Shown piece by piece: positions 250 to 63,753 of a DNA stretch of 64,000 nucleotides. Location of the stretch: contig CM120644.1 of NCBI GenBank assembly GCA_051362555.1, positions 9,680,954 through 9,744,953 on the forward strand. The letters are read 5' to 3'. This DNA comes from Lingula anatina (Eukaryota > Animalia > Brachiopoda). Both the position numbers and the translations under genes were made by a program. The notes beneath the pieces were generated by a model. That model saw nothing but the letters and a program-made list of their open reading frames with translations, was not told the origin of the DNA and ran no database searches. The stretch's first letter is position 1; each line of letters begins with the position of its first letter.

Positions 250-3200
250 TGATCTTTGAGATGGACGTCCACATTTCGAATAAATCGAAGAAGTTCACAT
301 ATGGTAGACCTGTAGCCATTTTTCCTTGGTTTTGCAACTCCGTTATAAACAGCTTGATCGAGCATGTCCTTCTGAAAAACGTCGTTATAAAACTCGCTAT
401 ATTTATCTCGTTAGTACAGTACACAGATTTTAAAACACAAATCCATATCCCCTCGTATTGTGGTGGTAAAAATAAATCGTTCCTGAAGAGACGAACCGAT
501 AAAATTTTATTTTCTATACATTATTATTTATGACTATATTTATGTTCTACATATTAGATATGTACCGATCTCTGCATAACAAAAGGTCAAAATCACACTG
601 CAATTGTTCTTTAAAAATTATTTAATCGAAAAAAATGTTATTAGAAAGTTGAAATTTGCCTTTGAGTAATATTCCAGATGTTCTGTGCATACTATAACGT
701 ACATGCGCTGTAGGCAATTTGCATCCTCAATTAATCAAAGATGGGAGATGAAATGAACGGTGATTTATTATGTGACAGAAACAATTTGTACAATGATGTA
801 GGGGAAAGGGATGCCGTATACAAATATGCCTTAATTTTGACAACAGATCTGATTTCATTTCATCATAATGCCCAGTGCATGATGAAAAATTATACACAAT
901 TTTAAAGTACGATGCAAATGGAATTTGTGTCATTTTATTCAGTTTTTGGAAGGCAATGATATTGGTACTAGGAAAAAGGGTCGCCTCCATAAACTTTTAT
1001 CCTCCCCCTCTCTTCCACCACTCTGAATTTCCTTATGTAGTCTTTATATTCAAGATAAGATAAGATAAGATAAGAGTTTATTCAGCCATTAATATATAAA
1101 TATAAAATTCATATAAAACGGAAATTGGACTGCTATTCAGGTTACAAATTATAAATAAATAAATTATAAATTTCCATTTTTGTTGTTAAAATGAAACACA
1201 GCAGATGGGTAAAAACTCTTTAAAAACCTTTTAGATCCCTTAAAAGTTAAAAGTCTGCAGTTGCTCGGTAAAAATTTAAAAAGCCCATGTGCGGGGTGGG
1301 TATAGTCAGACATGATTTTCTCTGTTTTTGTTACTGATCTGTTAGTATAGATGGCACCTAGAGAGGGGAGTTCCAGACCGATGATTTTGCCGCACGTTGA
1401 TGTGACCATAACTAGACGCTTGCGCTCTTCTACAGTGGCCCGCCCATACCATACTATGATTGCAAATGTTAATATACTTTCTATAACACATTTGTAAAAG
1501 TTAGCTAAAATCATTTCATTTGAAGTAAAATCCTTCAACTTTCTTAAAAAATATACCCTTTGCCTCGCTTTTTTTTAACTGTTTGTCTATGTGGTCCTTC
1601 CATATGTAAGTGAGCTATTGAATTCTACCTCCAGTAGTCTAAAATTGGCTACTTGCTTTACTGCAGTGCCACTGATATGAATGGGTTCTTTCACATTTCT
1701 ATTCTTTCTGAAGTCAACAATCATTTCCTTAGTCTTCCCTACATTCAGTAACAAATCGTTGTCTTTACACCATTGTACAACTGAGTTGACATCGTTTCTA
1801 TACCAGGTCTCATCATTATCACTTATTAAGCCAATTAAAGTGGTGTCGTCGGCAAACTTCAAGATGCAATTACTCAATGTACGCCAGTAACCCAATGATA
1901 TAATACACATTTTAATACACAAAAAAGCAAAATTGATGATAAACATCCAACAGGACCTACCCAGTGCGGTACTGTGTTAAACACGGATACCGTCAACCTG
2001 TCCAGTGTCAACGTTACGGAATGTGGCTGCTGTTTCCAACTGAAATAAATCGAAAATTAAATATCACAATAAAAGTCGGTTGTTCTTATAGTTCACGTAA
2101 TATAGTATTATTAAACTGCTCGCATTAACTATACTGCTGATATTGCATTCTCTTTTTTCTTCAATGCATGTATGTCTACCTAAAAGATTAATCGCAGAAG
2201 ACTACCAAATGTTTTTTCAATAGAGCCATCTTTTAAAAAAGCTATGAGACAATTTAAGAAACCTTTATATTAAAGTCCATGGATAAAACATAACACAATC
2301 TGGAAAGTAAAGGACATAAGATATATGTAACAGAAAGTAAAATACTGCTGACGTTGCATTTCCACATCCTGACGTCTCAACTTATTTTTTCATTTAACGT
2401 GTAAAAATTAGGAATATCTCTCTGCTTTAAGTGTACCTTTCTTTCACTTCTTTCTCGTCCCCCAACGCACCAAGAAAACAATACCTCATATCCACATTCC
2501 AAAAGAACGGGTGCCTGTTAATAAGAGGTATATCCTTATTTACTGTACACTTACATGTGTAACCTCCTGCACCTTAATTTTTATTAGCGCATTTACACAT
2601 TTTATAAATATATACTTGACAGTATGTGTTTAGTACTTTCATAAGTATGATGTGATTTTTTTTCTTCAGTCAACAGCTAATATTGAGATAGGTTTTACCT
2701 CCAATATTTCGATGTCTCAGTATTAGCTGTTGACTGAATAAAAAAATCAAATCATTCTTATAACTTAACACAGCTGATGAAATTCTTCTCTGAATTAGTA
2801 CTTTCATGTTTTCGGACAACATTACACACATCTAACCAACAATGGAAAGTGCGTGCCTTTAATTTCGTAGTGCGTAAGTAGCTTTAGTTGCTTCAAATTT
2901 AGTTTTTGCCAACGAAATCTTTTTAAGAAGGGGAAAGAGGAAACATAAAGATAACTTACGCCAGTGCTTCCTCAATGGTCGGCCTCAGCTCAGGGTCTGG
3001 CTGCAGCATCCAGGCCACTAAATGTTTTCCAACGATGTCGTCCAAGGCTGAAAGGTCATGTTTTCCATCTTGCACGTTCTTGTTACACAGAAACACGTCG
3101 GCCTCGCCACTGGGCATAAATGGGTGTATGCCACCTGTTAGTGTGTAGTAGACTAACATCCCGGCCACCTGCAAGGGCAACAGAATAATAAACGCTTTTT

Positions 3201-6200
3201 TTAATCAAAACTTAACGCACATACATTATACCTAAGTTATATATAATCATTGATGTACGGCTCGACAAAGCTATACCCCGGTACAAAATAGTGATATTAA
3301 TCACATACATGTATTTCCGATTACGTATTTATCAAAAGGAAATTAAAAAATATCATGCTGATGACTCTTTATAAATCTTCGTCAATAATACACGTGTACG
3401 CGTGTCCATGACATCATCATTGAGTTTTTGACAAGTTTATGTAGTTAACTGTAATTTTACCTGAATATCGGCATTTTTCTTGTATTTGGTTTTCCCAGTG
3501 GCGCTATCCAATATCTCCTTTGCCACCCAATGGTATGTTCCTGAAGATGCACCAGATATATAACAACGACAGTAAGGGAATAATGAATTAAATACATGTT
3601 CCATCAAAGCCTTTTAAAAAGCTTTAAATTGGCAATGAGTAATATAAAACTAAATATAAATATAATATAAATTGGAGCTTTTTATAGTACCTCTACTATA
3701 TCCTTGTAAATAACCATGTGGCCAAAATTTTAATATCATTAGGCAGACAGACAGATGGATAGATATACAAATGAGCGTAGAGAAATTGTAATATACCTTT
3801 AGCAGTAGTGTAGAAAGTACTCTGGTTATCCGGGAGGACCACACTAATGCCAAAATCTGATAACTTTGCTCGATTGCTGATATCTATAAGAACGTTGTGG
3901 GGCTGGAATTGGTGGGTATTATTTAATGTACTACATTTGTATAATCCATTATTATAAGACGGATTTATACTTTTCTGCATACTAACCATCAGTCACTAAC
4001 ATAAAAAATTTCGCACACAAGTTTCATTTTCAAGTAAAGAATGAGTGTCAACGTTTTAAGAATAATATTTGGTAAAGGCCAAAATGATATTATTGCGATG
4101 AACTGTTGACAGGAGCAAAAATAAATACCCCCAGCATACCAAAATTCACTGACTGCTGAATGAGGGTGTCTACCTTGATATCCATATGAATCACGTTGTG
4201 CCCAGTGTGTAGGGTTCTGAGGCTCTCTAAGATATGCCCTACGAGATCTCGGGAGATGCTGCCCTGGTTTTGTTTGTACTCATCTGTAGATATAAATTCA
4301 TTGAGAGTAAACTCCCCGAGCTCAAGAATCAAGTACAGAAACTCGTCATCCATGGCAATATCAAGATACCGGATGATATTTGGGGAATCCAATGTAGTTA
4401 ACAAGCCTTTCTCGTTCTTAAAGTACTGTGACATGGACCTTGGGAATCTTTTTACGGCGACCTCTCTGCCATCATGCCGAATACCCAGAAGCACCTCAGT
4501 TTTGTTGCCGCTGAAGAAAATATAGTAATCTAATTTGAGTAATCTGAAACTTTAACTACGATCAATAACTCTTGCCCCGGTTAAAAGAATAAATGAAAAA
4601 CGTGTGGCAGAAATTTGACCTTGACTATTTATACTAGTAAGTCAGTAATAAAATTACTATGACAGACAACATTAGCTATGACAAACTAAAGCACACAACA
4701 CACAAACTTTAGCTAAGTATTTCATTGCAATTTCATTAATTGTTCATGATCAAGTCAATGGGAAAGCGTCTATAAACATAACAAAAACTATTTACAAAAA
4801 AACACCACTAGAACCTGCCCTCAGTGTCAGGGTCACTGTGAAGCTACATGTACCTTGCTAACTATTCAAACGTTTTAATGGAACAGCTTAACAGTTTTCC
4901 TGATATGGGTTATATACGAAATCAAGATCGAGCTGGCAAAACTGAATCTAGAACCTAGGGTACCAGAACCCGATTTGGAGAATGACAGTTTTTAAATTGA
5001 TCCCATAATCAAACTGAAAAATTATATAAAACTGAATAAATAAAGCACACCTCACTATACTTACGATCCAATTTTAAACCTGTCGATCTTTGTGCTGAAA
5101 CATACGTTGTTCACTTCCTTCAAGTTCCCGTCGCTGACCTGCAGAAGTTCTTCAAATAAAGACCTCCATCTGGCACTGACAGGTGTCCAGTTTGCTGAAT
5201 ACTTTAGGGCAATCTGTTCCTTCAGATAGATTACATTACTGGACGTTACTATAGAATCACAGAGCAGTCCATCATCGGCTAAATCGTTTTGACCAATTTG
5301 TAGGATCTGGCGTGAAACAGGAATGTCTGCGTCTGCCTCTATTTGTTTTTTTCAAAAACGCCACATTGTTATTTGGTGAAACTTGATAGTCTATCAAAGT
5401 ACCGGTAGGGAGCAGCACTGGTACTCTCCAGGGCTGACTGGTAAGAATGATGACCATTTTCCTTTCCATTTTGGAGGTCAGGTATTCGGCAAACATCTTA
5501 TCGTCACTAAGAACGTTACCATTGAAACTAAGGTGTTGTTCAAATAGATGAATGTCGGTATCCACCGCCAGAATCTGCTTAAGTGTGCCGACGACCTTGC
5601 TTGCAAACAAAGAGTATTTATAGATTTGACCGCCACGTGTTACATAAACCTTTACTGACCAGTCAAGAGTCACAACCGACCCTTCTTGGAGACCATAATC
5701 CTTCAACTTTTTGTCGCTTCCGAGTTGTGTCCCTTCGTAAATGAAAATAACTGCCCTCACAAAATTCTTAGCCAGTGCGTCCACTGTATCCGTTGGAAAT
5801 ACTTTAGCCGATTTTTGGGTGTTCTGTCCTATAATCTTAAACACCACTTGGAATGAAACAGACACCTTGATTTTATGTAGACGATACAGAGGAGTCTTCT
5901 TGTCGGATTCGACCAATGTCCGGAGTGTATCTCTTCCTTTGCGCTGGGCTTTGATTAGAATCATATCCTTATGTGCTGCTTGTAATTTAAGATAAATCAT
6001 ATTCACTAAATCTTCGACGGTAAGTAGGGGATTCCAAAACTGTTCTTCGTGGCTGTCATCGGCAAATTGAACAAGAATTTTATGCAAGCCATACGTGACC
6101 GTGAACACGCTGTCTGTTCCAAAGTAAATGCCATAATCCATGAAAGTTCTGTCTTCGTCAAGACTGTCCGACTCACTCGGGATAAGACCATGATATACAT

Positions 6201-9200
6201 TCAAGTAACAAAGGGGCAAATTTACGATGTTATTGACTTTGGTCTTTATAACTCGTACTTTATCCGTGCCCTTTACGGACATGCGCACACTCTGTCCGTC
6301 TGGCAGATGAACAGATATAACATAAACTGGTTCTGATTGAACACATGCAACCATGAGTGTGGCTTCGGCATCGCATTTGCATACGCACCTCTGAAAGGAA
6401 AATAAGCATTCAGTATTATATGTATGATATGCATTGATTGATGAATACAAATTCTCCAACGGTAAGAAACGGGTCGCAGGATTTTTCTGCAGGGCTGTCA
6501 TCGGCAAATTGAACGAGAACACTATGTGAGGCATAGGTGACCGTGAACACTTGGTCTGTTCCGAAGCAACTGCCACAGTCCGTGAAAGTTATGTCTTCGT
6601 CAAGACTATCCGAAGCCCCCGGGGTAAGACCTCGATAAACATTCTCGTTCAAGTTTACTGACTTTGGTCGTTATAACTCGGACTTTATCCACAGGTAACT
6701 TTCGTCCATCTGGCAGATGAATAGATAAAAGAAGACCAGGTCTACGTTTCAGTTTTTGCAACCGTGGTTGTGACTTCGGAATCTGATTTGCATACGCACC
6801 TCTGAATTATATACAGACTTGACATTTAATTTGGAATATTTCAGTTTCGAAGGTATGCCTAGGTAAAAATTCGTTCTTTTTTCAAAAAAACTCCGATCTC
6901 ATATAAGATTTGTGAATGGAGAAGTGTGTAGTCAGGTGTGTCGCTACCAATTAACTGACTTCCATGTCTGTTGCGCTGCTACATTATGTAATATGCGGTG
7001 ATTTGGATAGTGTACCTTTGGGCTGGTCAATGCTTGGCTCAGGCAAATCTTGGTTCTGTCAAAAAAGTATCCGTATGTCGGCAACTATTACATAGAAAAA
7101 TTTGAAATTTTGCATGCAAGCGGTCAGTTTTGCAGTTCGTAAAATGAGCTAAGTAGTGCTTTACAAGTTTGTTAATTTGTGGCAGAATGGCGCGAAAAAG
7201 ACAGACATTACCAGACAGATTACAGCGCCAAACGGAACGGTCCGCACAGTATTATAGAGTAATGCCCTGACTAATGTAACTTCACAGAGGTCACACCCAA
7301 TGCATCGAAATCTTATCTCCAGGGTACAGGACGCACTATCTTTCGGGATACGCTGCTGCAACTAAACAAAAGCCACCCAGTCCGTTCAGAACGAGGGGTA
7401 AATTGCCACCAAAATGCGTTTTTCAAGGCCCTTAACGAACACCAAACTGGTTTTAGCAGGTTAGAATACCAGACGACCTCCGAGGTACCCACCGTAAACA
7501 ACAAAACATCGTCGTCTGTTTCTCTAATGAATTGGGGGCCATGACCGTTTCTGGGTAGAACACTGAAACCGCGTGGCTTTCTTTATTGAGGTCAGGTTTC
7601 ACCTGTACCGCCCAGCTAGTCAAAACAGTTTACAGACATCCAGAAGAGGCCTACGACGAAGCATGTGCCGCGTCTAAAGTGACATGGGTCATTGACAGCG
7701 TCAGTATTTGGAGTGGATACCACATTGGTGCCAAAACACCAATGGTAGTCATTGACGAAAACCTGAACCAGATCAAATAAAGGAATAATCTGGGAACCAC
7801 TTGACTATCATTTGATAGGGGGGACCTTAGGAACAATTTTAGGTTGCACGGTCAGATAACCGCTTCACACAGAGCACTTTTAATAGCAGATAACTTATAG
7901 AACCAAGGGAATGAGCAGCTACCCTGGTCATCAAAATCGCCACATTTGAACCGCATAGACAATATGTGGGTAAGCCATTACTAGCCAAATCAACTGCTTA
8001 CATGCCCTACATCAAAACTGGACCAAATTGGACAATTTTGGACCGATGCCTGGAATAAAATTCCAGATTGAACTCTAAAAACCCAACCCAAGGAATGCCT
8101 TGCCGCTTGAGAGCCCTGGTTACAGACAGAAGAGGGCAGGCGTAACAGCGACCGTTACTGTGACTAGGCACTGACATGAGGGTCCTTTGTGTAGCGTATA
8201 ACTCTTTTACAGACGTTAACTTGGAAAATATAGAGAACCAAAATATCTCTTTTAATGGATGTCGTATGACATAGAATAGGCAATGCATTTCTGTTTGCTT
8301 CACTGTCGAATTCAACCAATGAGCTGATGTCACCATGACATCAAAGAGATAATTTAAAGTTATTAAAACACGATTTTAATCCTTATTTTCATTTATCAGT
8401 CAGCAAAATAGGAAAAAACTGATGAAAAATGACTTGGAAAAAAATATTCCATATTAAATGTCAAGTCTGTATATACATGTATATATATCGTATTTTCTTG
8501 ACTGATAATTGAAAATAAGCATTAAAATCGTGTTTCCGTAACTTTACATACATGTGATCTCGCCAGTGAAGCAAATACATTCCATATTCAAGTCATATGT
8601 CAACCTTTTAAGCGATATTTTGGACCTACCCACATATTATTTATGTGGTTCAATTATTTTGATGACCAATGCAGCTGCTTATTTGATTGGTTCAGTAATT
8701 TTCTACTATTAAATGTGCACACACACAGACTGGACATTTGACATTGTTGATATGCTTTAGTTGATGAAATATTTGGTCCAAATTGAAGAAAAATATTAGA
8801 ATATTTACAGCATTTCAATATATTTCTTTCTTTGGATAGTTAATCTGCATTGCTTCACTTATTCATTTATTCATTTTACTCATTAACCATATACTTATGA
8901 TATTCAATATAATTTGCACTTTTTGGCATCATTTTCATATCATTGATTTTTCTTTACAACAAAAATAACTGATGTAAGTATTTGAAAGTAGAATGTTTTT
9001 GTAATCTTAATTGGAAACCACGACTGCAGGTGAAGACAATAATGGATAGAAAAAAAAGCAATGAACAGAAAAAAATTACCGAGAAACAGTTTTCGCAACA
9101 ATCAGAAAACCGATCTCTACATCCCTCTCGACCTTCCTCGCAGTCGTCGTATTCCCCGCAACAATAACATAGACAGCAACACACAAGCAGTCCCACAAAG

Positions 9201-9457
9201 AAGAAACATGTCAAGGAGATCTGCAGGGCAATGATTAAAATCACTTGTTCACGAGTGAGCTCCTCGGTGGTTGTGGGCGTGGTCTCTGTAACAGGCGTGG
9301 TCTCGGTGGTGTTATGTCTCTGGGAGGCCGATCCATTTCCGATAAAGAGCTTTGCTGACGTCGCAATTCTCATGTTATTGGTATCAGAGGATGTGACGTG
9401 GGGTGTTAAAACTAACAAAATGGCGGTCATACTGCACAAACCCCGGCACATATCCAT
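250..9457 (-). CDS. Paralogue A of the TM-Ubl-kinase-KEN gene (exons 1-9; last exon off-window; 1-nt frameshift in exon 2, possible pseudogene)
   Basis: Exons 9457-9080, 6390-5065, 4510-4174, 3902-3797, 3540-3461, 3168-2960, 2514-2437, 2039-1961, 371-250. Exons 3-9 have the same lengths and phases as copy B. The T7 run at 5346-5352 is one base too long for the frame; the rest is open. Confidence 0.82.
1052..1875 (-). mobile_element. 5'-truncated non-LTR retrotransposon (Rex1/Babar- or CR1-like RT 3' end) in intron 8 of copy A
   Basis: KFADDTTLIGLIS..LLLNVGKTKEMIVDFRK and NFYKCVIESILTFAIIVWYG..HPAHGLF. (TCTTA)n 3' tail at about 1052-1075. Absent from the same intron in B and C. Confidence 0.85.
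6440..6801 (-). pseudogene. Degenerate partial duplicate of the start of exon 2 (first Ubl) in copy A
   Basis: RCVCKSDSEVTTTVAKTET* followed by frameshifted SDSLDEDITF..FGTDQVFTVTY..VLVQFADDS, repeating the start of the exon at 6390. Confidence 0.75.
6814..8469 (+). mobile_element. Degenerate Tc1/mariner DNA transposon
   Basis: ~30-bp TIRs CAGACTTGACATTTAAT(T/A)TGGAATATTTT, TA on both flanks, transposase remnant PWSSKSPHLNRIDNMW at about 7920-7970 (cf. Tc1 WPSxSPDLNPIENxW). Confidence 0.85.
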
Positions 9458-14815: not shown

Positions 14816-14819
14816 TGTA

Positions 14820-22300: not shown

Positions 22301-22910
22301 GAAAATGTACAAAAGTAATGCAAATATAAATAAATATGAATTAAGTTAAATAGTGATATTGTACGACTCCTTGTATGAAAAATACAAAACATATTTGGCA
22401 GAGCCCAAATGGCTCTACCTACTAAATGTGCTACTTACATGTATAATATCTTTTTGCATGGTGATTTGTAGGCAAATGATAGTACGTGGGAAGCGGGAAT
22501 TTATAAAGGTAGGCCCACCTATTTTGCCATGTTTCTATACAGCTGATCTTGATACGTCATATTTACATTAGTGTTCACGGGACCGGAGCCAGCAAATTCA
22601 AAAGGGGGGTTCTTTTTCTGAAAATGTGGATCTTTTACCCTGAAACATGTGTGTACCTAGATAAAATTTGTCGTTCTGTTCAGGGATATCTAAAGTGAAC
22701 AATTTTGAGTGGGCACTTTTTATGACATGTTGCTTATGCGCATTTAATGCTTTTCACATTGTAACGTATGCATCTACATGGATAGATGAAAATGTACAAA
22801 AGTAATGCAAATATAAATAAATATGAATTAAGTTAAATAGTGATATTGTACGACTCCTTGTATGAAAAATACAAAACATATTTGGCAGAGCCCAAATGGC
22901 TCTACCTACT
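19354..22910. repeat. 1023-bp tandem array (three near-identical units plus a fourth with an internal deletion)
   Basis: Near-identical ORFs recur at 19502/20525/21548 and 19842/20865/21888. Deletion junction at about 22667. Confidence 0.95.
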
Positions 22911-37837: not shown

Positions 37838-37921
37838 TTATGCTGTAAAATATTGCTTCAATGGTCCTCTAACCGTCCAGTCATCATCAGAAGATCGGGT
37901 GTCTTTCACCGTTTTGTAAAT
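37838..37921 (-). other. Isolated duplicate of the last 28 codons of the KEN exon (alternative terminal exon or paralogue remnant)
   Basis: ttatttag|ATT TAC AAA ACG GTG...ACA GCA TAA = IYKTVKDTRSSDDDWTVRGPLKQYFTA*, colinear with the C-termini of B and C. Confidence 0.7.
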
Positions 37922-39921: not shown

Positions 39922-42900
39922 TTATGCCGGAAAATATTCCTTCAGTGACCCCCTAACAGTCCAGTCATCAGCAGACAATCTGGTTTCTCTCACAGTTTGG
40001 TAAACCTTCAGGAACAGCTCGTCAAAAGGCAGTCTGGCGGTGAAGTACGTCATGGGATTACCAACACTGGCTTGTATAGCGGGCGGCCTGGAAATAGATT
40101 CGTTAAATGTATAAGACCCCCATTTTTTCTTTAAAAGACATATTTACAAAGATACGGCATAACAACTGGAAATTTCCTCTCAAGTAAAAGAGGAAAAAAG
40201 CACACTGCATACAGTTCTCACTTAGATTTTTGAACAGTTTCATTAGTTTGATACCTAACAGCAATAAAATTCTCTTTTGTTACAAACTAAAAATAACATT
40301 TTATGAAACGCGCTAAAATATTGTGATGGACAAAAGGGTAATTATATTGAAACATGCAGTTCTCATTTTTGTAGATTTACATTTTAAAAACTGGTCTGGA
40401 TATTTTAATAAAACTTAATCTTTTAAGATAAAACGCTGGTAAAATTCTATTTGATACAGTATTTTCTGAATTAGCTATTATTATACTGCAAGTCATAAGG
40501 TTTTCTGTCTCTTCATAACTCTGATATGTTACTATAAACATATTGGTTGGATCAATCGTGTTTTACAACCTTTTTTCCAAACCTTGAACATAAGGTTAAC
40601 CCCCTAAAGTGTCCGCAATGCTGAGCTAAATCCATCTCATTCGTAAATTTTCCAAATATGCATGAGCATACTGACTGCCAAACACTGAAAGTGATGTTAA
40701 TATTTGAAAAATTAAGAATATAACATTCTTACTGATCTTTCAGATGGACGTCAACATTTCGTATGAATCGAAGAAGTCCACATATGGTAGACCTGTAGCC
40801 ATTTCTCATTGGTTTTGCAACTTCGTCATAGACAGTTTGGTCGAGCAGGTCCTTCTGTAAAATATTATTACAATGAACTCGGTATATTTGTCTCGTTGGT
40901 ACAATACCCAGATGGTGAAATAAATTTCCCATTTCCCCTTGTGTTGTGATGGTTAAATAATAAATCGTTAATGAAAAGACGAAACGTCACATAATATTAA
41001 TAAAATTTTATTTTCTTTACATTAATTATTATTTATGACTATATTTTTGTTCCACATATATGATATGGACCGAACTCTGCAAAACAAACCATTGAAATCA
41101 CATTGAAATTGTTTTTTTTTTTTTATTTTTTTATGAAATTATTTCATTGAAATAAAATGTTTAAAATATTGAAATTACGGACTTTGCCTTCTCTGTGCCA
41201 ATATTTAAGAGCTTCTATGCATACCACGTGCGTCTTCAATAAATCTAAGATTAAGATGCACTGTGATTCATTATTTCACGGGGACACTTTTTCGTGTACA
41301 CTCAGGCTGTTGTACAATAATGTAAGGGGATAGGAATTCCCTACACGAAAATACATTTTATTTGACAACTGGTTCGATTACATTTCATCAAAATGCTCAG
41401 TACAGGTTGAAAAATGAAAAAAAAATTAAAGTACTGGGCAATAGGGATTTGTGTCATTTTGGTCAGGTTTTGGAAGGCAATGATATTGGTACGGGAAAAA
41501 AGGGTCGCCTCCATAGACTTTCATCCTCCCCCTCCCTTCCACCACTCTGAATTACCTTATGTAATCTTAAGATTACATGTATACGCCAGTAAATCCATGA
41601 TAATGCACATTTAACTCACCCTGAGCTTCAGAGCTAACTTGACACTAACCTTTTCACTGTAGCCTATCTCCATCGTGTCAAGTAACCTCTGACCAGATTC
41701 GATTGCCTCCGCCGCCCGCCAATCAAATTTAAAAGCCCGCACTCAATGACTCATTAAACGATCTAGCCAATGAACGCGAACGAGTCAAAGCGCGCTTTGT
41801 TCAAATCCGGACCAATCAAAGATAAGGCTGAATATCAGGGTCTTGCCGTAACCTGTGGGCAGCACGCAAATAACATCGTCTCTCAGTAGATAATGATGCA
41901 GGGCATCATACTGCTCTGGTTTCAATTCCGATATACTCCATGCTTTCTTTGTGTACGGTTATGCACTCGGAACCACTCGGAACTACTCGGATGTCTCCGC
42001 ACTCGACAATAACTATGTTGTTAGTATGGAGCTTGCGGAATCAGCCGAGGATTGCCGATTGACGATCAACCAATCAGCGTTTTCACCAAACTTTGGTGAA
42101 AAATTTTGAAACATGGATTCGATTGGCTTATATAAAATAGGTCAAACTATTTTCGTCAGAGGTTACTTGACACGATGGAGATAGGCTACAGTGAAAAGGT
42201 TAGTGTCAAGTTAGCTCTGAAGCTCAGGGTGATTTAACTACAAAGACGCTTAATTGTTGATAAAAAGCCAAACGGACTTACCCAATGTGGTACTGTGTTA
42301 AACACGGATACCGTCAACCCGTCCAGTGTCAACGTTACGGAATGTGGCTGTTGTTTCCAACTGAAATAAATTCACTGGATTGACAATAATTTTATACAAA
42401 TTAAAGATTACAATGACAGTTGGTTGTTCTTATACATATCGTTAACATAATGTATTATTATTAAACTGCTCGCATTAAGTATACTGCTGATATTGCATTC
42501 TCTTTTTTCTTCAATATATTTACGGCACTAAAAGGGTTCAAAGCAGAAGAATATCACGATCTAAAAAGTTACAGAACCATTTCAAAAACGTTTAAATCTA
42601 AGTTAAAGATAAAGAATAATGCACTCTGGCACGTAAAGGACATAAGATTTATATAACATAAAGCAAAATACTGCTGATGTTGCATTTCCACATTCTGTCA
42701 CAGCTAATTCTTTCATTAAACGTATACAATTATTAACATCCTTCTGTTTTACCTTTCTTTCACTTCCTTCTCGTCCCCCAACATACCAAGAAAACGATAC
42801 CTCATATCTGCATTCCAAAAGAACGGGTGCCTGTTAATGAGAGGTATATCAATATTTATTGTATGTTTACAATGTAACTCCCTGTACCTTATTTCTTTAT

Positions 42901-45900
42901 CAGTGCATTAACACATTTTATACGTATTTAATTGACAATATGCGTTAAGTACTTTCGTCTTTTCGAACAACGTTACACACATCTAACTAACTATACATTA
43001 ATAGATATCATTTTTTCGCTTGTTGATAGTGAAAGTGATTCTTTACCTGAAAAGTGTGCAAGTAGCTGTAGTTATTTTCTGCCCAAAATTCTATTTAAAA
43101 AGGGGAAAGAGGAAACAGAGAAAACTCACGCCAGTGCCTCCTCAATGGTCGGCCTCAGCTCAGGGTCTGGCTGCAGCATCCAGTCCACTAAATGTTTTCC
43201 AACGATGTCGTCCAAGGCTGAAAGGTCATGTTTTCCGTCTTGAACGTTCTTGTTACACAGAAACACGTCGGCCTCGCCACTGGGCATAAATGGATGTATG
43301 CCACCTGTTAATGTGTAGTAGACTAACATCCCGGCCACCTTAAGGTAAAAAGGAACAAAATTTTCATTAACAAACAAAAAGAAAAGAAAAAAGAGCGGAT
43401 TGAAAAAGAAAAAATCTCGTCCTCGTCTGTATGCGCGTTTATCTATGTTATTGGACATATGAGCACATACAGTTCAGCTTGATAATAGCTACAAAAAAGC
43501 CAATTCTTTAATTACCCACTGTTAAAATGAAATCTTAATAAATCATGCTGCAGTTTTTCAACAAATAATCATCAATGATACGCTAGTTCGTACCTGATAT
43601 CATCATAATGCAAAACTATTACATAATGCCGTGTACAATAGAATCTTTCTTTGTTTTACCTGGATATCTGCGCATTTCTTGTATTTAACTTTCCCACTGG
43701 TGCCTTCCAGTATCTCTTTTGCCACCCAGTGGTATGTCCCTGAAGATACACCACAAATATGAAAATTACGGTTAGAGAATTATAAATAAGAATGCATGTT
43801 TGGTTTCATTATAAAAATTAAAAGTATGACTGTAATTTGATATTGAGTAAAATAAATCACGGGTTCAGTTCTTCTGCTGTAACTGAATACCCTCTCCACC
43901 AGAGATTTAACATTAATTAACTATATCCCACACATCTGTAAAGGTAGACAGACAGACACACTAACACATAAAGTGGGAGAAATATTATACCTTTAGCAGA
44001 AGTGTAGCAAGTGCTCTGGTTATCCGGGAGGACCACACTAATGCCAAAGTCTGATAATTTTGCCCGGTTTCTGACATCTATTAGAACATTCTGGGGCTGA
44101 AATTGAAGTATACCACATACTACTTATAAACTGTAATCCTTATAATGGATTATTTACTTAAACGTTTCTTGTTCACCTAGTGCTAATTATAAATAACATT
44201 AAAACTTTTGGTGTGTGTCACGAACTTACGAATTTCAACTGAATAAATGATATAATATTGTAAAGCTCCAACAATGAATGTAACTGAAACTAGAAAAGCA
44301 CTCAGAGAGCGCGGACCTCCGCCAAGGCAGCAAAGTCTCCATCCAATGCCGTTTCACCCCTAAATTTTCGATATTTTTGATTATTGATTATTAATCAGGA
44401 TCACCCCCAAAAATTAACCATCTGTTCCTTAGCCCACTTCTGACAGTTTCTTAAAATTCAGCAAAATAGGTCCACAACTTTTTGAGTTATGTTAATGACA
44501 GACAGACAAACCAACAAACAACCAGGGGTGAAAACATAACCTCGGAGGTAAAAATACACTGTGTATATAAGTATATCAGAATTCCACAAATAATCACCGA
44601 CAAATGACAAGTTATCTACCTTGATATCCATGTGAATAACGTTGTGCCCAGTATGTAAGGTTCTTAGACTCTCCAAGATTTGCTCTACGAGATCTCGGGA
44701 GATATTGGTCTGGTTTTGTTTGTACTCATCTGTAGATATGAATTCATTGAGAGTAAACTCTCCAAGCTCAAGAATCAGGTACAGAAACTCGTCATCCGTG
44801 GCAATATCAAGATACCGGATGATATTTGGGGAATCCAGTTTAGTTAACAGGCCTTTCTCATTCTTGAAGTTCTGTGACATGGACCTTGGGAATCTTTTCA
44901 CGGCGACCTCTCTGCCATCATGCCGAATTCCCAGAAATACCTCAGTCTTGTTCCCACTGCGAGGAAAGTATAATAATCTAATTTCAGGAATCTGAAACTC
45001 TACCGGCTATTGATAACTCTTGCCCCGGTCAAAAGAATCATTGAAAAATGTGTGGCAGAAATTTAACCTTGGCCATTTATACTAGTATGTAAGTACTTCA
45101 AATACTATGACAGAATTCATATTTCTATTTACAATATCAGCAATGACAAACACTACGGCACACAACAAACTTTTTCTAAGAATTTTATGTCAATTTCATT
45201 CGTTTTCGCATGTTCTAGTCAATGAGAAAGCGTCTATAATTGATTAAACAATAAAAAAACACCAGCAGAACCCGATTTGGAGCATAAAAATGATACCATA
45301 ATCAAACTGAAAAATTATATAAAACTGAATAATTACAGCACAGCACACTATACTTACGATCCAATTTTAAACCTGTCGATCTTTGTGCTGAAACAAACGT
45401 TGTTCACTTCTTTCAAATTTCCGTCGCTGACCTGCAGCTCTTCAAATAAAGACCTCCATCTGGTACTGACAGGTGTCCAGTTTGAGGAATACTTTAGGGC
45501 AATCTGTTCCTTCAGATAGATTACACTACTTGACGGTACTAAAGAATCACAGAGCAGTTCGTCGTCGGCTAAATCGATGTTTACTCCATCACTTCGAGTT
45601 TGTAAGATCTGACGTACAGCAGGAATGTTTTCATCTGCCTCTATTTGATCTTTCAAAAACGCCACGCTGTTATTTGGTGAAACTTGATAGTTTCTCAACG
45701 TACCGGTAGGGAGCAGCACTGATACTATCCAGTGTTTAATGGAAAGAATGATGTTTATTTCATCTTCCATTTCGGAGGTCAGGTATTCGGCTAATATCTT
45801 ATCGTCACTAAGAGCTTTGTTATTGAAAATAAGGTGTTGCTCAAAACGATGAATACCTGTTTCCACCGCAAGAGTCTGCTTTAATCCGCCGACGACACTG

Positions 45901-47588
45901 CTTGTCAACAAAGAGTATTTATAGCTTTGAGTGCCAAGTGCTACAGAAACCTCTACTGACCAGCCAACAGTCACAACTGAGCCTTCTTGGAGACCATAAT
46001 CCTTCAACTTTTTGTCGCTTCCGAGTTGTGTCCCTTCGTAAATGAAAATAACTGCCCTATCAAAATGCTTCGCCAGTGCGTCCACTGTATCCGTTGGAAA
46101 TACTTTAGCCGATTTTTGGGTGTTCTGCCCTATTATCTTTAACACGACTTGGAATGAAACAGACACCTTGATTTTACGTAGACGATATAGAGGAGTCTTC
46201 TTGTCGGATTCGACCAATTCTTGCTGTAAAGGTTTTCCTTCCCACTGGGCTTCTATTAGAAGCATATCCTTGCGTGCTGCTTGTGACTTAAGATCAATCA
46301 TATCCAAAAAATTTCCGACGGTAAGAAGGGGATCCCGATATGTTTCTTCAAGGCTGTCATCAGCAAATTGGACGAAAACACTATGAGAGAAAAAAGTGAC
46401 CGAAAACTTTTGGTCTGTTCCAAAGTAAATGTCATTACCCACGAAAGTTTTGTCTGGGTCAAGACTATTAGACTCCTCTGGGTTAGGGCCTTTATAAACA
46501 TTCACGTATTCAAGGGGTACATTTACAACTTCACTGACTCTGGTCTTTATGACTCGGACTTTATCCGTGCTCTTTACTCTCATAGCCAACTCTTGGTAGT
46601 CTGGCAGATAAATTAATATAAATTGAAAATGTTCTAAAATCTCTGTTTCAGTATCTGCAACTATTGGTGTGGCTTCGGGCTCTGATTTGCATTCGCACCT
46701 CTGAAAGGAAAATAAACCTTCACTATTACATGTAATGTTTAATATGCATTGGTTGATGAATACAAATTAGTCCAGATTAAAGAAATCTACTTCAAGAAAA
46801 TATTTATTTCTCCGTTTAGTACTGATTTTACCTGCATTACTTGACTAAATTATTTATTCGTTTTACCTATTGGTTTACCGTTTGATGATCAACATCACTT
46901 AATCGATGCATTTTGGCATCATTTAATTATCTATACATTTCCATCTTAACAACCATAGCTCATATAAGCATTTGATGGCTGCATATATCTGGAATTTTTA
47001 TTGGATGTCACCATTGCAGTAAAAGACAATTGTCGATCAAAGAAAAGCAGTAAACAAAAAACTTACGGAGAAACAGTATGCCCAACAATCTGAAAACCAA
47101 TCTCTACATCCCTCTCGACAATACTTCCAATTATAGTAACCCTTGCAACAGCAGCAAAGACAACGAGTTTCATTTTCCTGAGAGCAGAGATACACACAAA
47201 CAGCTCCAACACAGCACAGAATCAGCAGACAAGCAACACTGGTTGACACGGCAGTTGCTATGATCCATCCTTGAACTCCAGTAGTGGGCGTGGCACCGGT
47301 GGTTGTGGGCGTTATCGTGGTTTTGTTTGCGTAATCGACGTTGCTGTTGTTGTTCTTGTTGTTTAATTGGTTTACGCTGGATGCTGACGCAGTCCCTGTA
47401 ACAGTAGGGGCAATCTCAGTGGCTTTACCGCCGTAATCTCTCTGGGAGACAGTTCTATTTGCGATGGGGGGCGCTTCTGTTGTCGAGATCCTCGTGGAAT
47501 TGGTATCAGAGAATGAGATTGGTGTGACGTGCAGGGTTAAGAGTACCAAAGTGGCGGAGAAACAGTACACAACTTTGCATGTATCCAT
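39922..47588 (-). CDS. Paralogue B (complete): type I membrane protein with signal peptide, TM, Cys-rich stretch, ~5 Ubl domains, IRE1/RNase L-like kinase and KEN RNase; ~1013 aa
   Basis: GT-AG exons with consistent phases: 47588-47067, 46700-45358, 44956-44620, 44096-43991, 43739-43660, 43338-43130, 42830-42753, 42360-42282, 40854-40733, 40087-39922 (3042 nt, ends TAA). Motifs: IGSGNKTEVFLG..VAVKR, HMDIKPQN, DFG, GTYHWVAKE, DIQVAG, HPF, RPTIEEALAHPFFW, GYRSTICGLLRFIRNVDVH, VGNPMTYFTARLP. Confidence 0.9.
41617..42231. mobile_element. MITE with 8-bp TSD (hAT- or P-like) in intron 8 of copy B
   Basis: ~77-bp perfect TIRs CACCCTGAGCTTCAGAGCTAACTTGACAC..., TSD ATTTAACT. Confidence 0.9.
44288..44551. 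mobile_element. Helentron-associated (HINE/DINE-like) non-autonomous element in intron 3 of copy B
   Basis: AACTAGAAAAGCACTC..ACCTCCGCCAAGG 5' end, (GACA)n core, AAAACATAACCTCGGAGGTAA 3' end. Absent in copy A. Confidence 0.65.
45358..46700 (-). CDS. Paralogue B exon 2: tandem ubiquitin-like domains and start of the kinase N-lobe
   Basis: Ubl signatures VFPTDTVDALAK..FIYEGTQLGSDKKLKDYGLQEGSVVTV, LKQTLAVETGIHRFEQHLIFNNKALSDDKILAEY and VSPNNSVAFLKDQIEADENIPAVRQIL..LADDELL. Acceptor ttcctttcag, donor gtaagt. Confidence 0.85.
47067..47588 (-). CDS. Paralogue B coding exon 1: signal peptide, Thr/Ser/Asn-rich ectodomain, TM helix, Cys cluster
   Basis: ORF 47037-47588: hydrophobic N-terminus MDTCKVVYCFSATLVLLTLHV, TTITPTTTGATPTT, TM WIIATAVSTSVACLLILCCVGAVCVYL, then CLCCCC..CREGCRDWFSDC. 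Donor GTAAGT in phase 0. A TTTCAG acceptor just upstream of the ATG implies a further 5' exon. Confidence 0.8.
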
Positions 47589-48829
47589 TGGCTGAAATTA
47601 ATCTGAAAAACGAAGATACAATGCACACATGGAAGGAAAAATTACCATAGGTTGCCTTGTGCCAATTAAATGGTTTTGGTTTAAATTAGTTATGAGAGAG
47701 AGAGGCTTCGATCATTCTGTACCAACATATTTATGTCTGTATGTCAACCACACATATTACGTTTTGTGAATGTTGGGATTTCTGACAGTTGTACTGCCCT
47801 TGTTGGCCAACAGAGACGGGGAAGACACCAATTCTGACACACATGGAAAAGCACTTTTACTGAGACACTGGTGAATACCCTTAGCAAAATGAAAAGTTTG
47901 CAGCAAACTTGCAAAAAATTTGCAGCAAATTTGCTGCAAACCAAATAGTTTGCAAGAAACTGTTTGCAGGTTGTTGCAAGAAAAATCACAGTTGTTGCAA
48001 ATTTGCTGCAAATTTGTAGGAAGATTAAAAGTTTGCAGGTAGTTCGCAAGAAAACTATCATTTTCTAGCGAATTTGCTGCAAATTTGCAAGAAGACCCTC
48101 ATTTACATAAAAGTTTGCTGGAAGTTTGCAAGAAAGACTTAAAACTGTTGCAAATTTGCAGCAAATTTGCAAGAAACTGCTCATTTACATAAAAGCCTGA
48201 AGAAAGTTTGCAAGGATAAATATACCCTGTTGCAAATTTGCAGAAAATTTGCAAGAAAACCTTCATTTACATAACATTTTGCAGGAAGTTTGCAAGAAAG
48301 ACTAACATTGTTGCAAATGCAGTAAATTTGCAATAAACTCCTCATTTACATAAAGGTTTGCAAGAAACTCACCAAGTTAATTCATTTGCAAGAAATTGCA
48401 AAAAATTGTTTCATGTTTGCAGCAAATTTGCAAATTCTTTTTCATATAAAAGTCTGCCTGAGTTTTGCAAGAAAGTCCATACCTTTTTTTACTAACAAAC
48501 AGTTAAATTAATGATGTTTGCACTGAGCATGGGTGTCAGGAAGTGCCATTTTCAAGCCAAAATATTAGTATTAAGTTTAAAAAAAGAAAAAAAAAAGACC
48601 AAGTTAACTAACAGCTTATGAGATTTTTGCACGAAACTAAGAAATTTATAAACTTTAGTTTATGAGAAGTCTGAAGACACCTGAAGACACTTAAACATTT
48701 GTAAATAGTTTGGGAGAAGTTTGCAAGATGACATTTACTTAGTTTGCATAAAATTTGCGAGATACTCAGCAGTCTACTTACAGTTTGCAATAAGTTTGCA
48801 AGAAACTTGGACATAAACTTACAATTCAC

Positions 48830-49130
48830 AAGAAGTTTGCAAGAAACTTGAACAATTACTTACAGTTTGCAAAAAGTTTGCAAGAAACTTAGTCAAATAC
48901 TTACAGTTCGCCATAAGTTTGCAAGAAACTTAGACAATTACTTACAGTTCGCGATAACTTTGCAAGAAACTTAGACAATTACTTACAGTTCGCGACAAGT
49001 TTGCAAGAAATTTAGACAATTACTTACAGTTCGCGACAAGTTTGCAAGAAACTTAGACAATTACTTACAGTTCGCGACAAGTTTGCAAGAAACTTAGAAA
49101 TTAACTTACAGTTCACAAGAAGTTTGCAAA
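48830..49130. repeat. 41-bp minisatellite in the subterminal region of the transposon
   Basis: AAGTTTGCAAGAAACTTAGACAATTACTTACAGTTCGCGAC repeated about 7 times. Confidence 0.85.
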
Positions 49131-50612
49131 AAAAAAAGGGCTATTTGCTTACAGTTTGCAAAAAACTTATAAAAATAGAAATTAACTTTTTTTTTTTTTT
49201 TTTTTGAAATAATCAAGATTTAGGCATTTGAAAACTTCTTTTCCATTCTCGAATCCATCCTTACTCAAACTAACAAAATTGTACTAAAAAAAAAAAAAAA
49301 GACAAACAATTCATGTACAGTTATGGATTTTGCCCACTTTTTGGCCAAATTTATTTATTTACATAACCCCACATAAAAAAATAGTTCCAAAGGCTTATAT
49401 AAATGATTATTTATTCATTATAACATTTGTACTTGATATAATTTAAGTTCTTATGTATTATTATCAAATTAATACTTTGATTTACTGCTTATAAAACCGA
49501 GTAACCAGGATGATGTTAAGATTTCATAGGGTTTTCATGATTTAGGCAGATTTGGAGCAATACTGAATTATGATGTAACCCACCAACTATCAATGAACAT
49601 AAAAATCAACACTACACGGGATGACATTCCTTAGAAGTACTTCTTAAAAACAAATAAACTCTTTAGCCCAGGGTGAGTTTGCAAACCAGTGTATACTGAT
49701 GAGCATGTGAAGATCACTTAATTGACTCCCAGTAATTGCATGGGCAGACCACGGCATACAGAAAAATGAGCAAAATACTAAGGTGCACTGTCAAGTTATG
49801 ATCAGGGTAAATTGGTTTGTCACATGGGTCATCACAGGTATCTCCATTGAATCATCATCACTGTCACTATAATCTCCATCACAGTGGACTTCATTACTCA
49901 ACTCTTCTTCGCTATAAGAGAAGTTAGCACCACAGTTTTCTTTGCCATTGTCATTTTCACAAACTTCTTTTAGTTGTGTTATTGTGTCAGATATGTCACA
50001 TATAGCTGTTGCTTTAATATTCTGTACATCCAACTCTTTGGCATTCTCAGGATAAGGTCTTTATCTTTTGGGTCTCACTCTACCAAGTTGGTCAGCCATC
50101 TTGTCTAAAATAAATAAGAAAAAAAGAATTATGAAAAATATATGTCACAATAAGCCTAGATTGATCAAATTTATTATAACAGGACTCATGATTAAAAAAA
50201 GATGTACATTTTCAGTCCCCATTTACTATAGATTAGTAAGTAGCATTGTATTCAAAGCAGAAAGATTCTCATTTCATTATATAGCACCTACATAAACAAA
50301 CTGATTTCTATCTAAGCAAAGAACAGTGGTCCTTCAATTGAAATGCATACTAGTAAGGGTGGAACTTCAAATTCAGTGTCCTTGACACATCTGGTCTTTC
50401 AAATTTTCATGGATAATTACAGTGCAGCAGAATGGCTCTTTGGTTCTTTTATGGAAACTACACACCTGAGAGATAATTAACTAAGCAGACCAACATATTA
50501 CACACTGATTCTTATCTGAGAGGTCTTTCAATTCAATTTGTTAAATCTCTAAGCCCTGTGGTTCATCAGAATGAAACAATGAAAGAATTAAATGCAAATT
50601 ATTAAAACTTAA

Positions 50613-57330: not shown

Positions 57331-58226
57331 TTAAGGGAATCTACTAGAAGCTTACTTGACAAACTACCTGTGAGTGCAACAAATTTTACAAGAAATGTCA
57401 AGTTTTATTTTTCTTGTCTTTCAGATGTGATATGGTGCTTGTATCCCAGTCGACATTTGGTCCGACTTCTCTAGCGGGTGAAACAACAGCGGTGATATGT
57501 TTTTCCAGAGATCAACTACAACCTGCCTGATCTCTACGTTTATTTCTCTGGCTGACAGATTTGGAGTCTCCTAGGACAGCAGGGACTATCTAGCTATCGG
57601 TTCAACTGATCAAACTCACTCTGAGCTCTTATACTAAGTTCTACTCCTTATATACTTATACACACAAAATACATTACAGTGAATCATTAACAGGATTGAG
57701 ATATTGAAGCCAGTTAACAGAATTAAGACATATTACTAAGGACTCGATAATTAAACTCGGACTTCTTTAAACTTGGATGTAAATAAAGTTGTTGAACCCT
57801 CTTAAAAATTAAAGCATCCTTTATAGCTTGGTTACTGTTCTTTCCAATGAATAAAATGCATAAGCAGATTCACGTTGTATCATTATATCAGAGACATCTG
57901 AACAATTTTTACCAAATGTTGATTTAATTTGATTTAAATGTGCAAGTTTCTAAAATAAAATATTGAAAAATGTTTATGGTGTTTCTTACTGATATTCTGT
58001 GTGTGCTATTTTTTCATTCATTTTATAATTTTCTGTATGTGTTCTGCCAGCTGTACTATATGGCTAAAATACAGTAATAAAATTTTGCTACTCAATGATT
58101 TCAAATATGGCATACATGATTTAATTAAAAAAAAGAACTGGCATAAATAAAGCATAATCACTGGGTTAAATATTAGTTGTCAGTCTACTGCAATAGTGGT
58201 ACTGCAGAAGAATGTTTTTTCGATTT

Positions 58227-58266
<40 letters not shown>

Positions 58267-61489: not shown

Positions 61490-63753
61490 TCATGCTGTAA
61501 AATATTCCTTCAGTGACCCCCTAACCGTCCAGTCATCAGCAGACGATCGGGTGTCTTTCACAGTTTTGTAAACCTTCAGGAACAGCTTGTCAAAAGGCAG
61601 TTTGGCGGTGAAGTACGTCATAGGATTACCAACACTGGCTTGTATAGCAGGCGGCCTGGAAAAATATTCATGAAACGTACAAAAAAAGCCTCATTCTTCT
61701 TTAAAATACACATATTTACTAAGACCCAGGAGAACGACAAGGATTTTCTTGTCGATTAAAGAAGGAAAAAACACAGCTCCCACGTAGATGTTTGAACAGT
61801 TTCACCTATTTTATACTTATAAGCAATAAAAATCATCTTTAAATTTGTAAAAAACAATAATAACATTTTATTAAACGCGTGGAATATTTCGATGGACAAG
61901 AGGGTAATTATATTGAAACACGCAGTTCTAATTTTCTTAAATCTACCTCTTTAAAATCTGTTTTAGAAGTACTTCATCTTAGCTCTAGAAATATTGTATT
62001 TGAATAATATAATTTTCTGAATAAGCTTTTTAACGATGCAAGTCATACAGCCTTGTCCCTCTCCCACCACTCTGAAAACGATAATATACACACTGTAAAC
62101 ATATATCTTAAAACTTTCTTCCCCAACTTTAACCTTAAAGTTATCCACTTAAGATGTCCGGTATGTTGAGCTAAAACCACCTCATTCAGAAATTCCCCAC
62201 ACCTGCATGAGCATATTTAATGCTACATGCTTAAAGAATTGATAATATTTACAAAAATAAGTAATCATTCTTACTGGTCTTTGAGATGGACGTCCACATT
62301 TCGTATAAATCGAAGAAGTCCGCATATGGTAGACCTGTAGCCATTCCTCATTGGTTTTGAAACTTCGTCATAAACAGCCTGATCGAGCAATTCTTTCTGC
62401 AAAACATTATTTTTTGAAACTCGGTATATTTATTTCGTCAGTACAATATACAGATGGTGAAACAGATTTTTCAATGCCACTTGTGCTGCAATGGTAAAAT
62501 AATAAATCGTTTCTGAAAAGAGGAAACGTCATACGTCATTAATAAAATACTATTTTCTTGACATAATTTATGACTAATTTTGTCACACAGATATAAACCG
62601 AACTCTACAAAAAACTGTTCAAATTACATTGAAATTATTCTTTATATAATTATTTTATTGAAATAAAGTGCTATATAAAATATTGAAATTAAAGATTTTG
62701 TCTTCGTGCCAAGATTTTAGAGGTTCTGTGCATGCCACGTGCGCTGTAAGTGCGTCCTCAACAAATCAAAGATGGAAGATGAGATAAACTGTGATTCGTT
62801 ATGTGCCTGGGGCACTTTTGCGTATACATTCAGGTTGTTGCACAATAATATAGAGTAATGCCCTACACGAAAATACATTAAATTTCACGACTGATTTGAT
62901 TACATTTCAAGCTCAGTACAGTTTGAAAGATGATAAAAATGCTGGGGATTTTACAGTACAGAGCTTATAGGACATGTGTCGTTTTTGGCCAGTTTTTGGT
63001 AGGCAGTGATATTGGTCTGAAAGAAGAGTTTAAGATCGCCCCATTGATTTTCTCCCTTTCCCTTCCTCCAATCTCTCCGGATGAGTTTACGTAGATTAAT
63101 TAGTCTAATATTACGTGTACGCCAGTAACACACTGGTTATCCGCATTCAAGTATATGCGGAAGCACATTCAAGTATATGTGGAAGCACATTCAAGTATAT
63201 GCAGAAGCAAAATCATCAATAATAATCCAAAAAGACCTACCCAATGTGCTACTGTGTTAAACACGGATACCGTCAACCCATCCAGTGTCAACGTTACGGA
63301 ATGTGGCTGCTGTCTCCAACTGCAATATATTCAGTGGATTAACATGGATTTTATACAAATCAAATATCACATAGATAACGGCTGTTCTTATTGTAAACAA
63401 AAAAATTATTATTAAACTGCTCGCATTAAGTATACTGCTGATATTCTATTCTCACATTTTCTTCAATCCATCTACGTCTACTACGTCTAAGACATTAAAA
63501 GAAATGCTTACATTATTTTGTTTAAGATAAAAAAAAATACAATCTGGAACGTAAAGGACATGAGATTTATGTAACACGAAGCAAAGTACTACTTGTTTGC
63601 ATTTCAACATTGTGTCAAAGCTAATTCTTTCATTTAATGTATAAAATGATTATATGTAGTATCCCTCTATTTTACCTTTCTTTCACTTCCTTCTCGTCCC
63701 CCAGCACACCAAGAAAACGATACCTCATATCCACATTCCAAAAGAACGGGTGC
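61490..63753 (-). CDS. Paralogue C, 3' part (exons 7-10: kinase C-terminus and KEN RNase); continues beyond the right edge of the window
   Basis: Exons 63753-63676 (HPFFWNVDMRYRFLGVLGDEKEVKE), 63319-63241, 62396-62275 (KELLDQ..GLLRFIRNVDVHLKDQ), 61655-61490 (ends YFTA-TGA). Exon sizes 78/79/122/166 nt are identical to copy B. Confidence 0.87.

Follow-up and report, generated by a model that had tools for sequence, protein, structure and literature searches.

A putative membrane-anchored kinase-KEN protein with an array of ubiquitin-like domains in the brachiopod Lingula anatina

Kinase-KEN enzymes cleave RNA as back-to-back dimers. For IRE1 and RNase L such cutting as dimers has been described, and residues R594 and R627 were given as interface residues of IRE1 (PMC4536996, accessible part). 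RNase L proper was reported to be restricted to jawed vertebrates, and to derive from a pre-existing kinase-RNase protein that acquired ankyrin repeats (PMC10400998). The same study sorted the RNase homologs into ten clades and may already have charted the wider animal kinase-KEN family; Lingula is not named in the accessible part of its text. In Lingula, OAS was reported to be present and RNase L absent (PMC6307210, accessible part). The present work concerns a gene of Lingula anatina, here called copy B, located in a stretch of 64,000 nucleotides (assembly GCA_051362555.1, contig CM120644.1, positions 9,680,954 to 9,744,953; "the window", in which all positions below are counted). The window is a minus-strand tandem cluster of three gene copies (A, B and partial C) plus fragments. 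Copy B is a real gene. Its predicted protein carries a hydrophobic leader, a Ser/Thr stalk, a transmembrane segment (TM), a Cys cluster, an array of ubiquitin-like domains (Ubls), a kinase and a KEN domain, in this order. Judged by sequence, this is a real, lineage-restricted new architecture inside a known kind of enzyme; the animal family to which it belongs is poorly described and resembles RNase L, the antiviral enzyme of vertebrates. The gene appears to belong to a third, broad animal kinase-KEN clade and not to be an odd IRE1 or RNase L.

Copy B consists of ten exons and nine introns, all GT-AG, and the joined open reading frame encodes 1013 amino acids (aa) with a single terminal stop, so that the ten in-phase exons and ~1013 aa of the preliminary description, made from the sequence alone, are all confirmed. 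The exons are the following.

Exon 1, 47067..47588, minus strand: aa 1-174, predicted signal peptide, Ser/Thr-rich ectodomain, TM (about aa 110-137) and most of the Cys cluster; layout as in the paralogs P0002 and P0004
Exon 2, 45358..46700, minus strand: aa 175-621, entire Ubl array, pre-kinase helix and kinase start
Exon 3, 44620..44956, minus strand: kinase N-lobe, K642, E655 and catalytic loop H730-M731-D732; joined to exon 2 by 17 paralog reads
Exon 4, 43991..44096, minus strand: DFG (750-752)
Exon 5, 43660..43739, minus strand: AKE motif, D794
Exon 6, 43130..43338, minus strand: kinase C-lobe
Exon 7, 42753..42830, minus strand: KEN start
Exon 8, 42282..42360, minus strand: KEN
Exon 9, 40733..40854, minus strand: KEN active site Y938, R950, N951, H955
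Exon 10, 39922..40087, minus strand: KEN end and stop codon

Two NCBI paralogs of Lingula anatina are near-full-length relative to copy B, namely P0001 (LOC106158774, 81% identity) and P0002 (LOC106150894, 71%). In both models exon 1 is joined to exon 2 at the same codon as in copy B, and the donor and acceptor of intron 1 are also kept in copy A. A protein search returned no record identical to copy B. RNA reads were taken from 7 of 9 listed runs bearing the same species label. At 95% likeness introns 7, 8 and 9 were spanned by 6, 4 and 3 reads, in run X7 only, and at 80% likeness, in four runs, introns 2-7 were spanned by 17, 10, 12, 12, 24 and 30 reads. Eight of the nine introns are therefore spanned at the predicted positions, the join of the Ubl exon to the kinase exon being exact. 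The reads derive from a paralog: of the 40 read differences listed, 33 agree with copy A, and indels of P0001/P0002 are present in the reads. Transcription of the Ubl-kinase-KEN chain is thus shown for a paralog. For the two junctions proposed earlier for checking by RNA, 45358/44956 was found joined in the 17 reads, but 47067/46700 (intron 1, TM exon to Ubl exon) was spanned by no read; since depth is near zero at the start of exon 2, this join could not have shown up in the reads. The TM-to-Ubl join is predicted from the conserved splice sites and the two NCBI models. The full architecture is very probably translated in at least one paralog.

The domain order in the preliminary description is borne out by hydropathy, Pfam and composition. 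The hydrophobic N-terminus (signal peptide predicted at aa 1-28) is followed by a single TM at about aa 105-139, as seen from hydropathy and conserved in three paralogs. The ectodomain of 78 aa has 32% Ser/Thr, no Cys and four N-glycosylation sequons, and 16 Cys lie within aa 120-178. Pfam matched ubiquitin and Pkinase on the window exons; Ribonuc_2-5A remained under the cut-off on one 41-aa exon and was above it on whole paralog proteins. Exon 1 gave zero Pfam matches, so the ectodomain is without a sensor domain of the endoplasmic reticulum (ER)-luminal type, and no Pfam ANK match was obtained in the window exons or in P0001-P0004. The earlier statement that neither the luminal sensor of IRE1 nor the ankyrin sensor of RNase L is present agrees with this. 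The array and the segment following it are laid out as listed here.

Ubl 1, 46413..46622, minus strand: aa 201-270; Ubl profile
Slot 2, 46152..46412, minus strand: aa 271-357 (87 aa), likely a degenerate Ubl; Atlas leads only, Ubl profile unmatched
Ubl 3, 45963..46151, minus strand: aa 358-420; Ubl profile
Ubl 4, 45747..45959, minus strand: aa 422-492; Pfam, Ubl profile and structure model
Ubl 5, 45510..45728, minus strand: aa 499-571; Ubl profile and structure model
Pre-kinase helical segment, 45432..45509, minus strand: W582-x3-S-x2-W589, common to the family and aligning with RNase L

Four Ubls were detected, also with a Ubl profile made without Lingula rows. About five had been counted before; the fifth, in slot 2, is likely present but was not detected by profile, its Atlas leads pointing to ubiquitin clusters at 0.85-0.89 and its predicted local distance difference test score (pLDDT) being <50 over most of the slot. 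No internal repeat emerged when the Ubl region was compared with itself by BLAST, and exon 2 folded from its single sequence reached a pLDDT of only 30.5. None of the units ends in di-Gly (the sole GG of the array is internal, at 445), which implies that they are not conjugatable. P0001, P0002 and P0003 keep the array in frame and folded, as does the distant P0181/P0268 (27% identity to P0001). In the paralog P0004 signal peptide, TM, kinase and KEN are kept and the array is reduced to a remnant of the last Ubl. P0181/P0268 (Lingula LOC106171780) combines a signal peptide, leucine-rich repeats (LRRs), Ubls and a truncated (half) kinase in a model without TM; it is possibly a version with a Toll-like ectodomain or a chimeric or faulty gene model. 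Inside intron 1 of copy A, at 6446-6842, the beginning of the Ubl exon occurs a second time, in decayed form and with an acceptor site of its own, a hint at how Ubl number changes.

Family placement was studied with the kinase-KEN region. The best 120 of 214 matches listed comprised 4 from Lingula and 116 from elsewhere, at 36-48% identity, bony fish making up nearly all of those with names. A full scan of 1.84 billion representatives, with organism names for 30 looked-up rows, brought in soft corals, molluscs, hemichordates, amphioxus and lungfish among the named rows; many cnidarian-like rows were assigned by their grouping with Xenia. A first FastTree run had a weak backbone. Trees of 46 rows and of 35 rows (mixture model), picked from 91, were made by quick maximum likelihood with the Shimodaira-Hasegawa-like approximate likelihood ratio test (SH-aLRT), without bootstrap and with RNase L absent. 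The Lingula genes were nested in an animal kinase-KEN clade with cnidarian, mollusc, amphioxus and fish rows (SH-aLRT 98 for 46 rows, 95 for 35 rows). The IRE1 rows, whose identity was confirmed by their profile matching IRE1 at 620 bits and the luminal domain, formed a separate clade (SH-aLRT 99). Forcing Lingula with IRE1 was rejected only marginally by the approximately unbiased (AU) test (p 0.044). Bony fish appeared as sister group of the Lingula genes (SH-aLRT 89-91, not starred), but a clade of Lingula plus molluscs was not rejected (AU p 0.34), so that the fish sister relation and any story of gene transfer are unsupported. It is very likely that the kinase-KEN of copy B is separate from IRE1. 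Where the preliminary description had framed the gene as an unusual receptor of the IRE1/RNase L family, this phylogeny places it in the third clade, which possibly corresponds to clades C-E of the published scheme (PMC10400998, accessible part). The impression of an unrecognised, lineage-specific combination held up: Ubl and kinase occurred together in 2 of 150 listed representatives (P0002 and P0181), both from Lingula, and a literature search, with most subscription papers outside it, found no description of a TM-Ubl-kinase-KEN protein.

Accessory domains were surveyed with Pfam in 43 hand-picked relatives. An accessory module was found in 31: ANK in 14, GT4-conflict in 6, TPR in 3, PYRIN in 2 (one with caspase), CARD in 2, LRR plus Ubl in 2 (one gene), UEV in 1 and HEPN_DZIP3 in 1. 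ANK, PYRIN, CARD, caspase, GT4-conflict and other partner modules are ones that we take to be immune or conflict modules. Several relatives are of interest in themselves. A mollusc clade (P0223, P0265, P0237, P0218 and P0210; scallop, Solemya and abalone named) has no kinase HxD match and carries KEN, three members with ankyrin repeats, which is the layout of RNase L outside jawed vertebrates and has possibly arisen by convergence. P0143, P0177, P0128, P0131 and P0154, two of them named fish, are joined to PYRIN, CARD, caspase or UEV, which suggests recruitment of kinase-RNases to death-fold platforms. In P0204, P0194 and four others the fusion partner is a GT4-conflict glycosyltransferase domain; two of these carry an organism name, a hemichordate in both cases.

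RNase L (human 4oau/4oav, pig 4o1o) resembles copy B in kinase fold and KEN, and its KEN is the nearest solved match: KEN alone gave 44 (pig) and 37 (human) bits with RNase L versus 19-24 bits with IRE1. Over the whole kinase-KEN module IRE1 scored 127 bits versus 95 for RNase L, as expected, because RNase L is a diverged pseudokinase. A 20-row profile of the family matched RNase L at 225 and 208 bits and IRE1 at 268-286 bits; with a 20-row IRE1 profile RNase L fell outside the top 60, below 140 bits. The strict pre-kinase motif W-x3-S-x2-W/H was found in 27/50 family rows, 5/8 ANK-clade rows and 0/24 IRE1 rows, with the mis-anchored P0152, P0223, P0278 and P0237 counted as misses and six too-short rows excluded. 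In the model the pre-kinase helix superimposes on RNase L 332-350 (from 332-336) and IRE1 matches begin ~20 residues later, a contrast that is partly technical since IRE1 crystal chains start at 560-563; a 47-aa pre-kinase query against the PDB gave no match. As RNase L was absent from the trees, a sister relation of RNase L to the animal clade is something we infer. Unlike RNase L, copy B is without ankyrin repeats and is predicted to be membrane-anchored, and its kinase retains the motifs of catalysis, in contrast to the pseudokinase of RNase L (PMC4718504, accessible part).

IRE1/ERN1 shares with copy B the signal peptide, single TM, active-type kinase, KEN, the best fold match (Z 39) and equivalents of R594 and R627. 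It differs in that copy B has a 78-aa Ser/Thr stalk in place of the luminal domain, carries a Cys cluster and an array of Ubls on the inner side, reads HMD where IRE1 reads HRD, and falls in a separate clade. The closest relatives outside Lingula among the matches listed are bony-fish kinase-KEN proteins with ANK, PYRIN or CARD (auto-named IRE1-like, ppk4-like or irl-like); these are cytosolic and mostly HRD, with ankyrin or death-fold modules where Lingula has TM and Ubl. OASL and ISG15 are alike in having tandem Ubls in an antiviral setting (OASL: PMC10400998, accessible part) and ISG15 gave weak matches of ~18 bits, but the Ubls of copy B are without terminal di-Gly, there is no OAS domain and no sign of direct descent. 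A rice KEN-UBI fusion (gi:125543109) puts a KEN joined to a ubiquitin-like domain on record (PMC3710099); it is a plant protein, and its table entry describes neither TM nor Ubl array.

Catalytic residues are well kept in copy B. The kinase has K642, E655, H730-M731-D732 (HMD, non-RD) and DFG, and the KEN has the HEPN Rx4-6H motif as R950-N951-x3-H955, with H955 in the column where the RNase-inactive Ire1 structure 3sdj has Asn in place of His. RNxxxH is kept in all five Lingula kinase-KEN sequences. R637 and R669 correspond to the IRE1 interface residues R594 and R627. In the AlphaFold model of P0001 the pLDDT of kinase-KEN is mostly >85, and fold matches over kinase and KEN ranged from Z 30 to 39 (IRE1 39, RNase L 32). 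The ratio of nonsynonymous to synonymous substitution (dN/dS) was estimated for one pair, copy B versus copy A, by a counting method with bootstrap ranges. The kinase is the most constrained part (0.12; 0.07-0.21), followed by KEN (0.27; 0.10-0.66; 0.18-0.27 across estimates). The Ubl array, at similar dS, reached 0.76 (0.54-1.03; Fisher p 1e-8 for the contrast), with Ubl 3 at 0.22 (0.05-0.83), and the ectodomain 0.85. Purifying selection acts on kinase and KEN; for the Ubl array and the ectodomain it is not evident. The RNase is predicted, with good probability, to be active.

The best explanation, held at about even odds, is a single-pass membrane innate-immune RNase that is activated by clustering, the fast-evolving Ubls being a bait or brake and not a required activator. 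The protein would have type I topology with a glycosylated stalk, and the Cys-rich juxtamembrane segment, which recalls palmitoylated proteins, would likely be lipid-modified, favouring clustering. As a monomer the RNase would be kept inactive, and clustering of two molecules in the membrane would switch it on, KEN then cleaving RNA in a dimer-dependent way. The Ubls might engage pathogen or host ubiquitin-handling proteins, by which the brake would be relieved or the receptors cross-linked. An immune role as such is rather probable; the gene belongs to a tandem expansion that includes a broken copy and fragments, and the non-RD kinase class has been linked to innate immune signalling (PMC8463890, accessible part). 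The preliminary description had proposed a stress or antiviral RNA-degrading effector, of which the immune-effector part gains from the domain partners of the family. It had also proposed that the Ubl array or membrane clustering controls dimerisation; the array as a required switch is now unlikely in view of P0004, which has no array, and of near-neutral evolution. That the array is dispensable in one paralog and varies in the others is easier to reconcile with bait or brake than with a switch that is required. The specific role of the Ubls as bait or sensor is tentative and falls well short of even odds.

Several points weigh against the explanation of a clustering-activated immune RNase. 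The ectodomain is short, unstructured and without a recognisable ligand-binding fold. HMD occurs in 6 of 66 non-IRE1 rows and HRD in 51, so that a non-RD kinase is for the most part peculiar to Lingula and does not characterise the wider family, and 11/43 surveyed relatives had no accessory Pfam domain, 1/43 being an unrelated oomycete kinase. IRE1 D620 maps to L662, with D663 lying one position off. No Ubl unit is significantly above 1 (Ubl 4: 1.29; 0.66-3.1), the array value of 0.76 suits relaxed constraint equally as an arms race, and P0004 retains the catalytic module without the array. At 95% likeness, copy B exons 1-6 were matched by traces only.

In the main rival to bait or brake, the same membrane RNase carries the Ubl array as a passive spacer under relaxed constraint and is activated solely through partners of the ectodomain, TM or Cys cluster, such as a co-receptor. 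Loss of the array in P0004, a dN/dS range that includes 1 and an ectodomain that changes fast as well (0.85) suit a spacer; an array kept in frame and folded in P0001, P0002, P0003 and P0181/P0268, and the low value of Ubl 3 (0.22; 0.05-0.83), do not, and it is thought unlikely, at somewhat over one chance in five. The gene might also be a derived IRE1 whose TM senses membrane or secretory-pathway stress, with degradation of membrane-bound mRNA. It shares the type I layout with IRE1, IRE1 is the best whole-module match (127 vs 95 bits; Z 39 vs 32) and the AU rejection is marginal, but the IRE1 clade stands apart (SH-aLRT 99) from the animal clade that holds the gene (98, 95), the luminal domain is absent, and KEN alone is nearer RNase L (44, 37 bits) than IRE1 (19-24), which makes this reading improbable.

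Equally improbable is an output mainly by kinase or scaffold signalling with KEN a weak or vestigial RNase. That the kinase is the most constrained part (0.12) would suit it, as would several relatives without a KEN match and the 13/66 non-IRE1 rows without RNxxxH; the motif is intact, however, in all five Lingula kinase-KEN sequences and the KEN is constrained (0.18-0.27). Given the lowest probability is a chimeric gene model, in which exon 1 is not joined to exon 2, or a silent copy B. Intron 1 is unspanned, the reads come from a paralog, copy A has a frame break and an identical protein record was not returned; set against these are an open frame of >3 kb under purifying selection, splice sites kept across copies, the same join in two NCBI models, and a read depth at the exon 2 start at which the join was not observable. 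A bolder version of the clustering-activated immune RNase is rather doubtful, at one chance in five. Here a third family of kinase-RNases, from which RNase L arose or to which it is sister, would be present in animals from corals to fish and would exchange immune sensor modules freely; the Lingula form would be a cell-surface receptor independent of 2',5'-oligoadenylate (2-5A), its Ubl array an integrated decoy with which a pathogen ubiquitin-targeting enzyme trips RNA destruction.

The surrounding DNA holds further parts of the cluster, the copy number being a minimum counted within the window.

Copy A (P0002/LOC106150894 type), 250..9457, minus strand: exons 1-9; exon 10 outside the window
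Copy C, 61490..63753, minus strand: last four exons; remainder past the window edge
Orphan 3' piece of a last exon, 37841..37921, minus strand

Exon 1 of copy A is 100% identical to P0002 aa 1-126, and exon lengths and splice sites of copies A (exons 3-9) and C (exons 7-9) equal those of copy B. The frame break of copy A lies within an A-run near 5350 in the assembly; it is lacking in P0002 and could reflect allelic variation or an error of the assembly. Intron 8 of copy B contains at 41611-42237 a 627-bp element resembling a miniature inverted-repeat transposable element, with 95-nt inverted ends (94%) and deep RNA-read cover running into other loci, and intron 3 a second interspersed repeat (44288-44543) under many reads originating elsewhere. 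At 1164-1976, 14514-15098, 15523-17025 and 19354-22669 there are transposase-like fragments, reading frames that we take to be retroelement-like and, between copy A and copy B, a tandem repeat of ~1023 bp. A TGCAAA-rich satellite lies upstream of copy B at 47900-49200, and a similar array downstream of copy C at 58166-58704.

The animal kinase-KEN family is a concrete candidate for the precursor of RNase L; its enzymes are intact in invertebrates and also in ray-finned fish, a group that has lost RNase L. Unfolded proteins and 2-5A are two triggers of kinase-KEN RNases, and a third would be represented by a member that is anchored in the membrane and combines a non-RD kinase with a variable array of Ubls.

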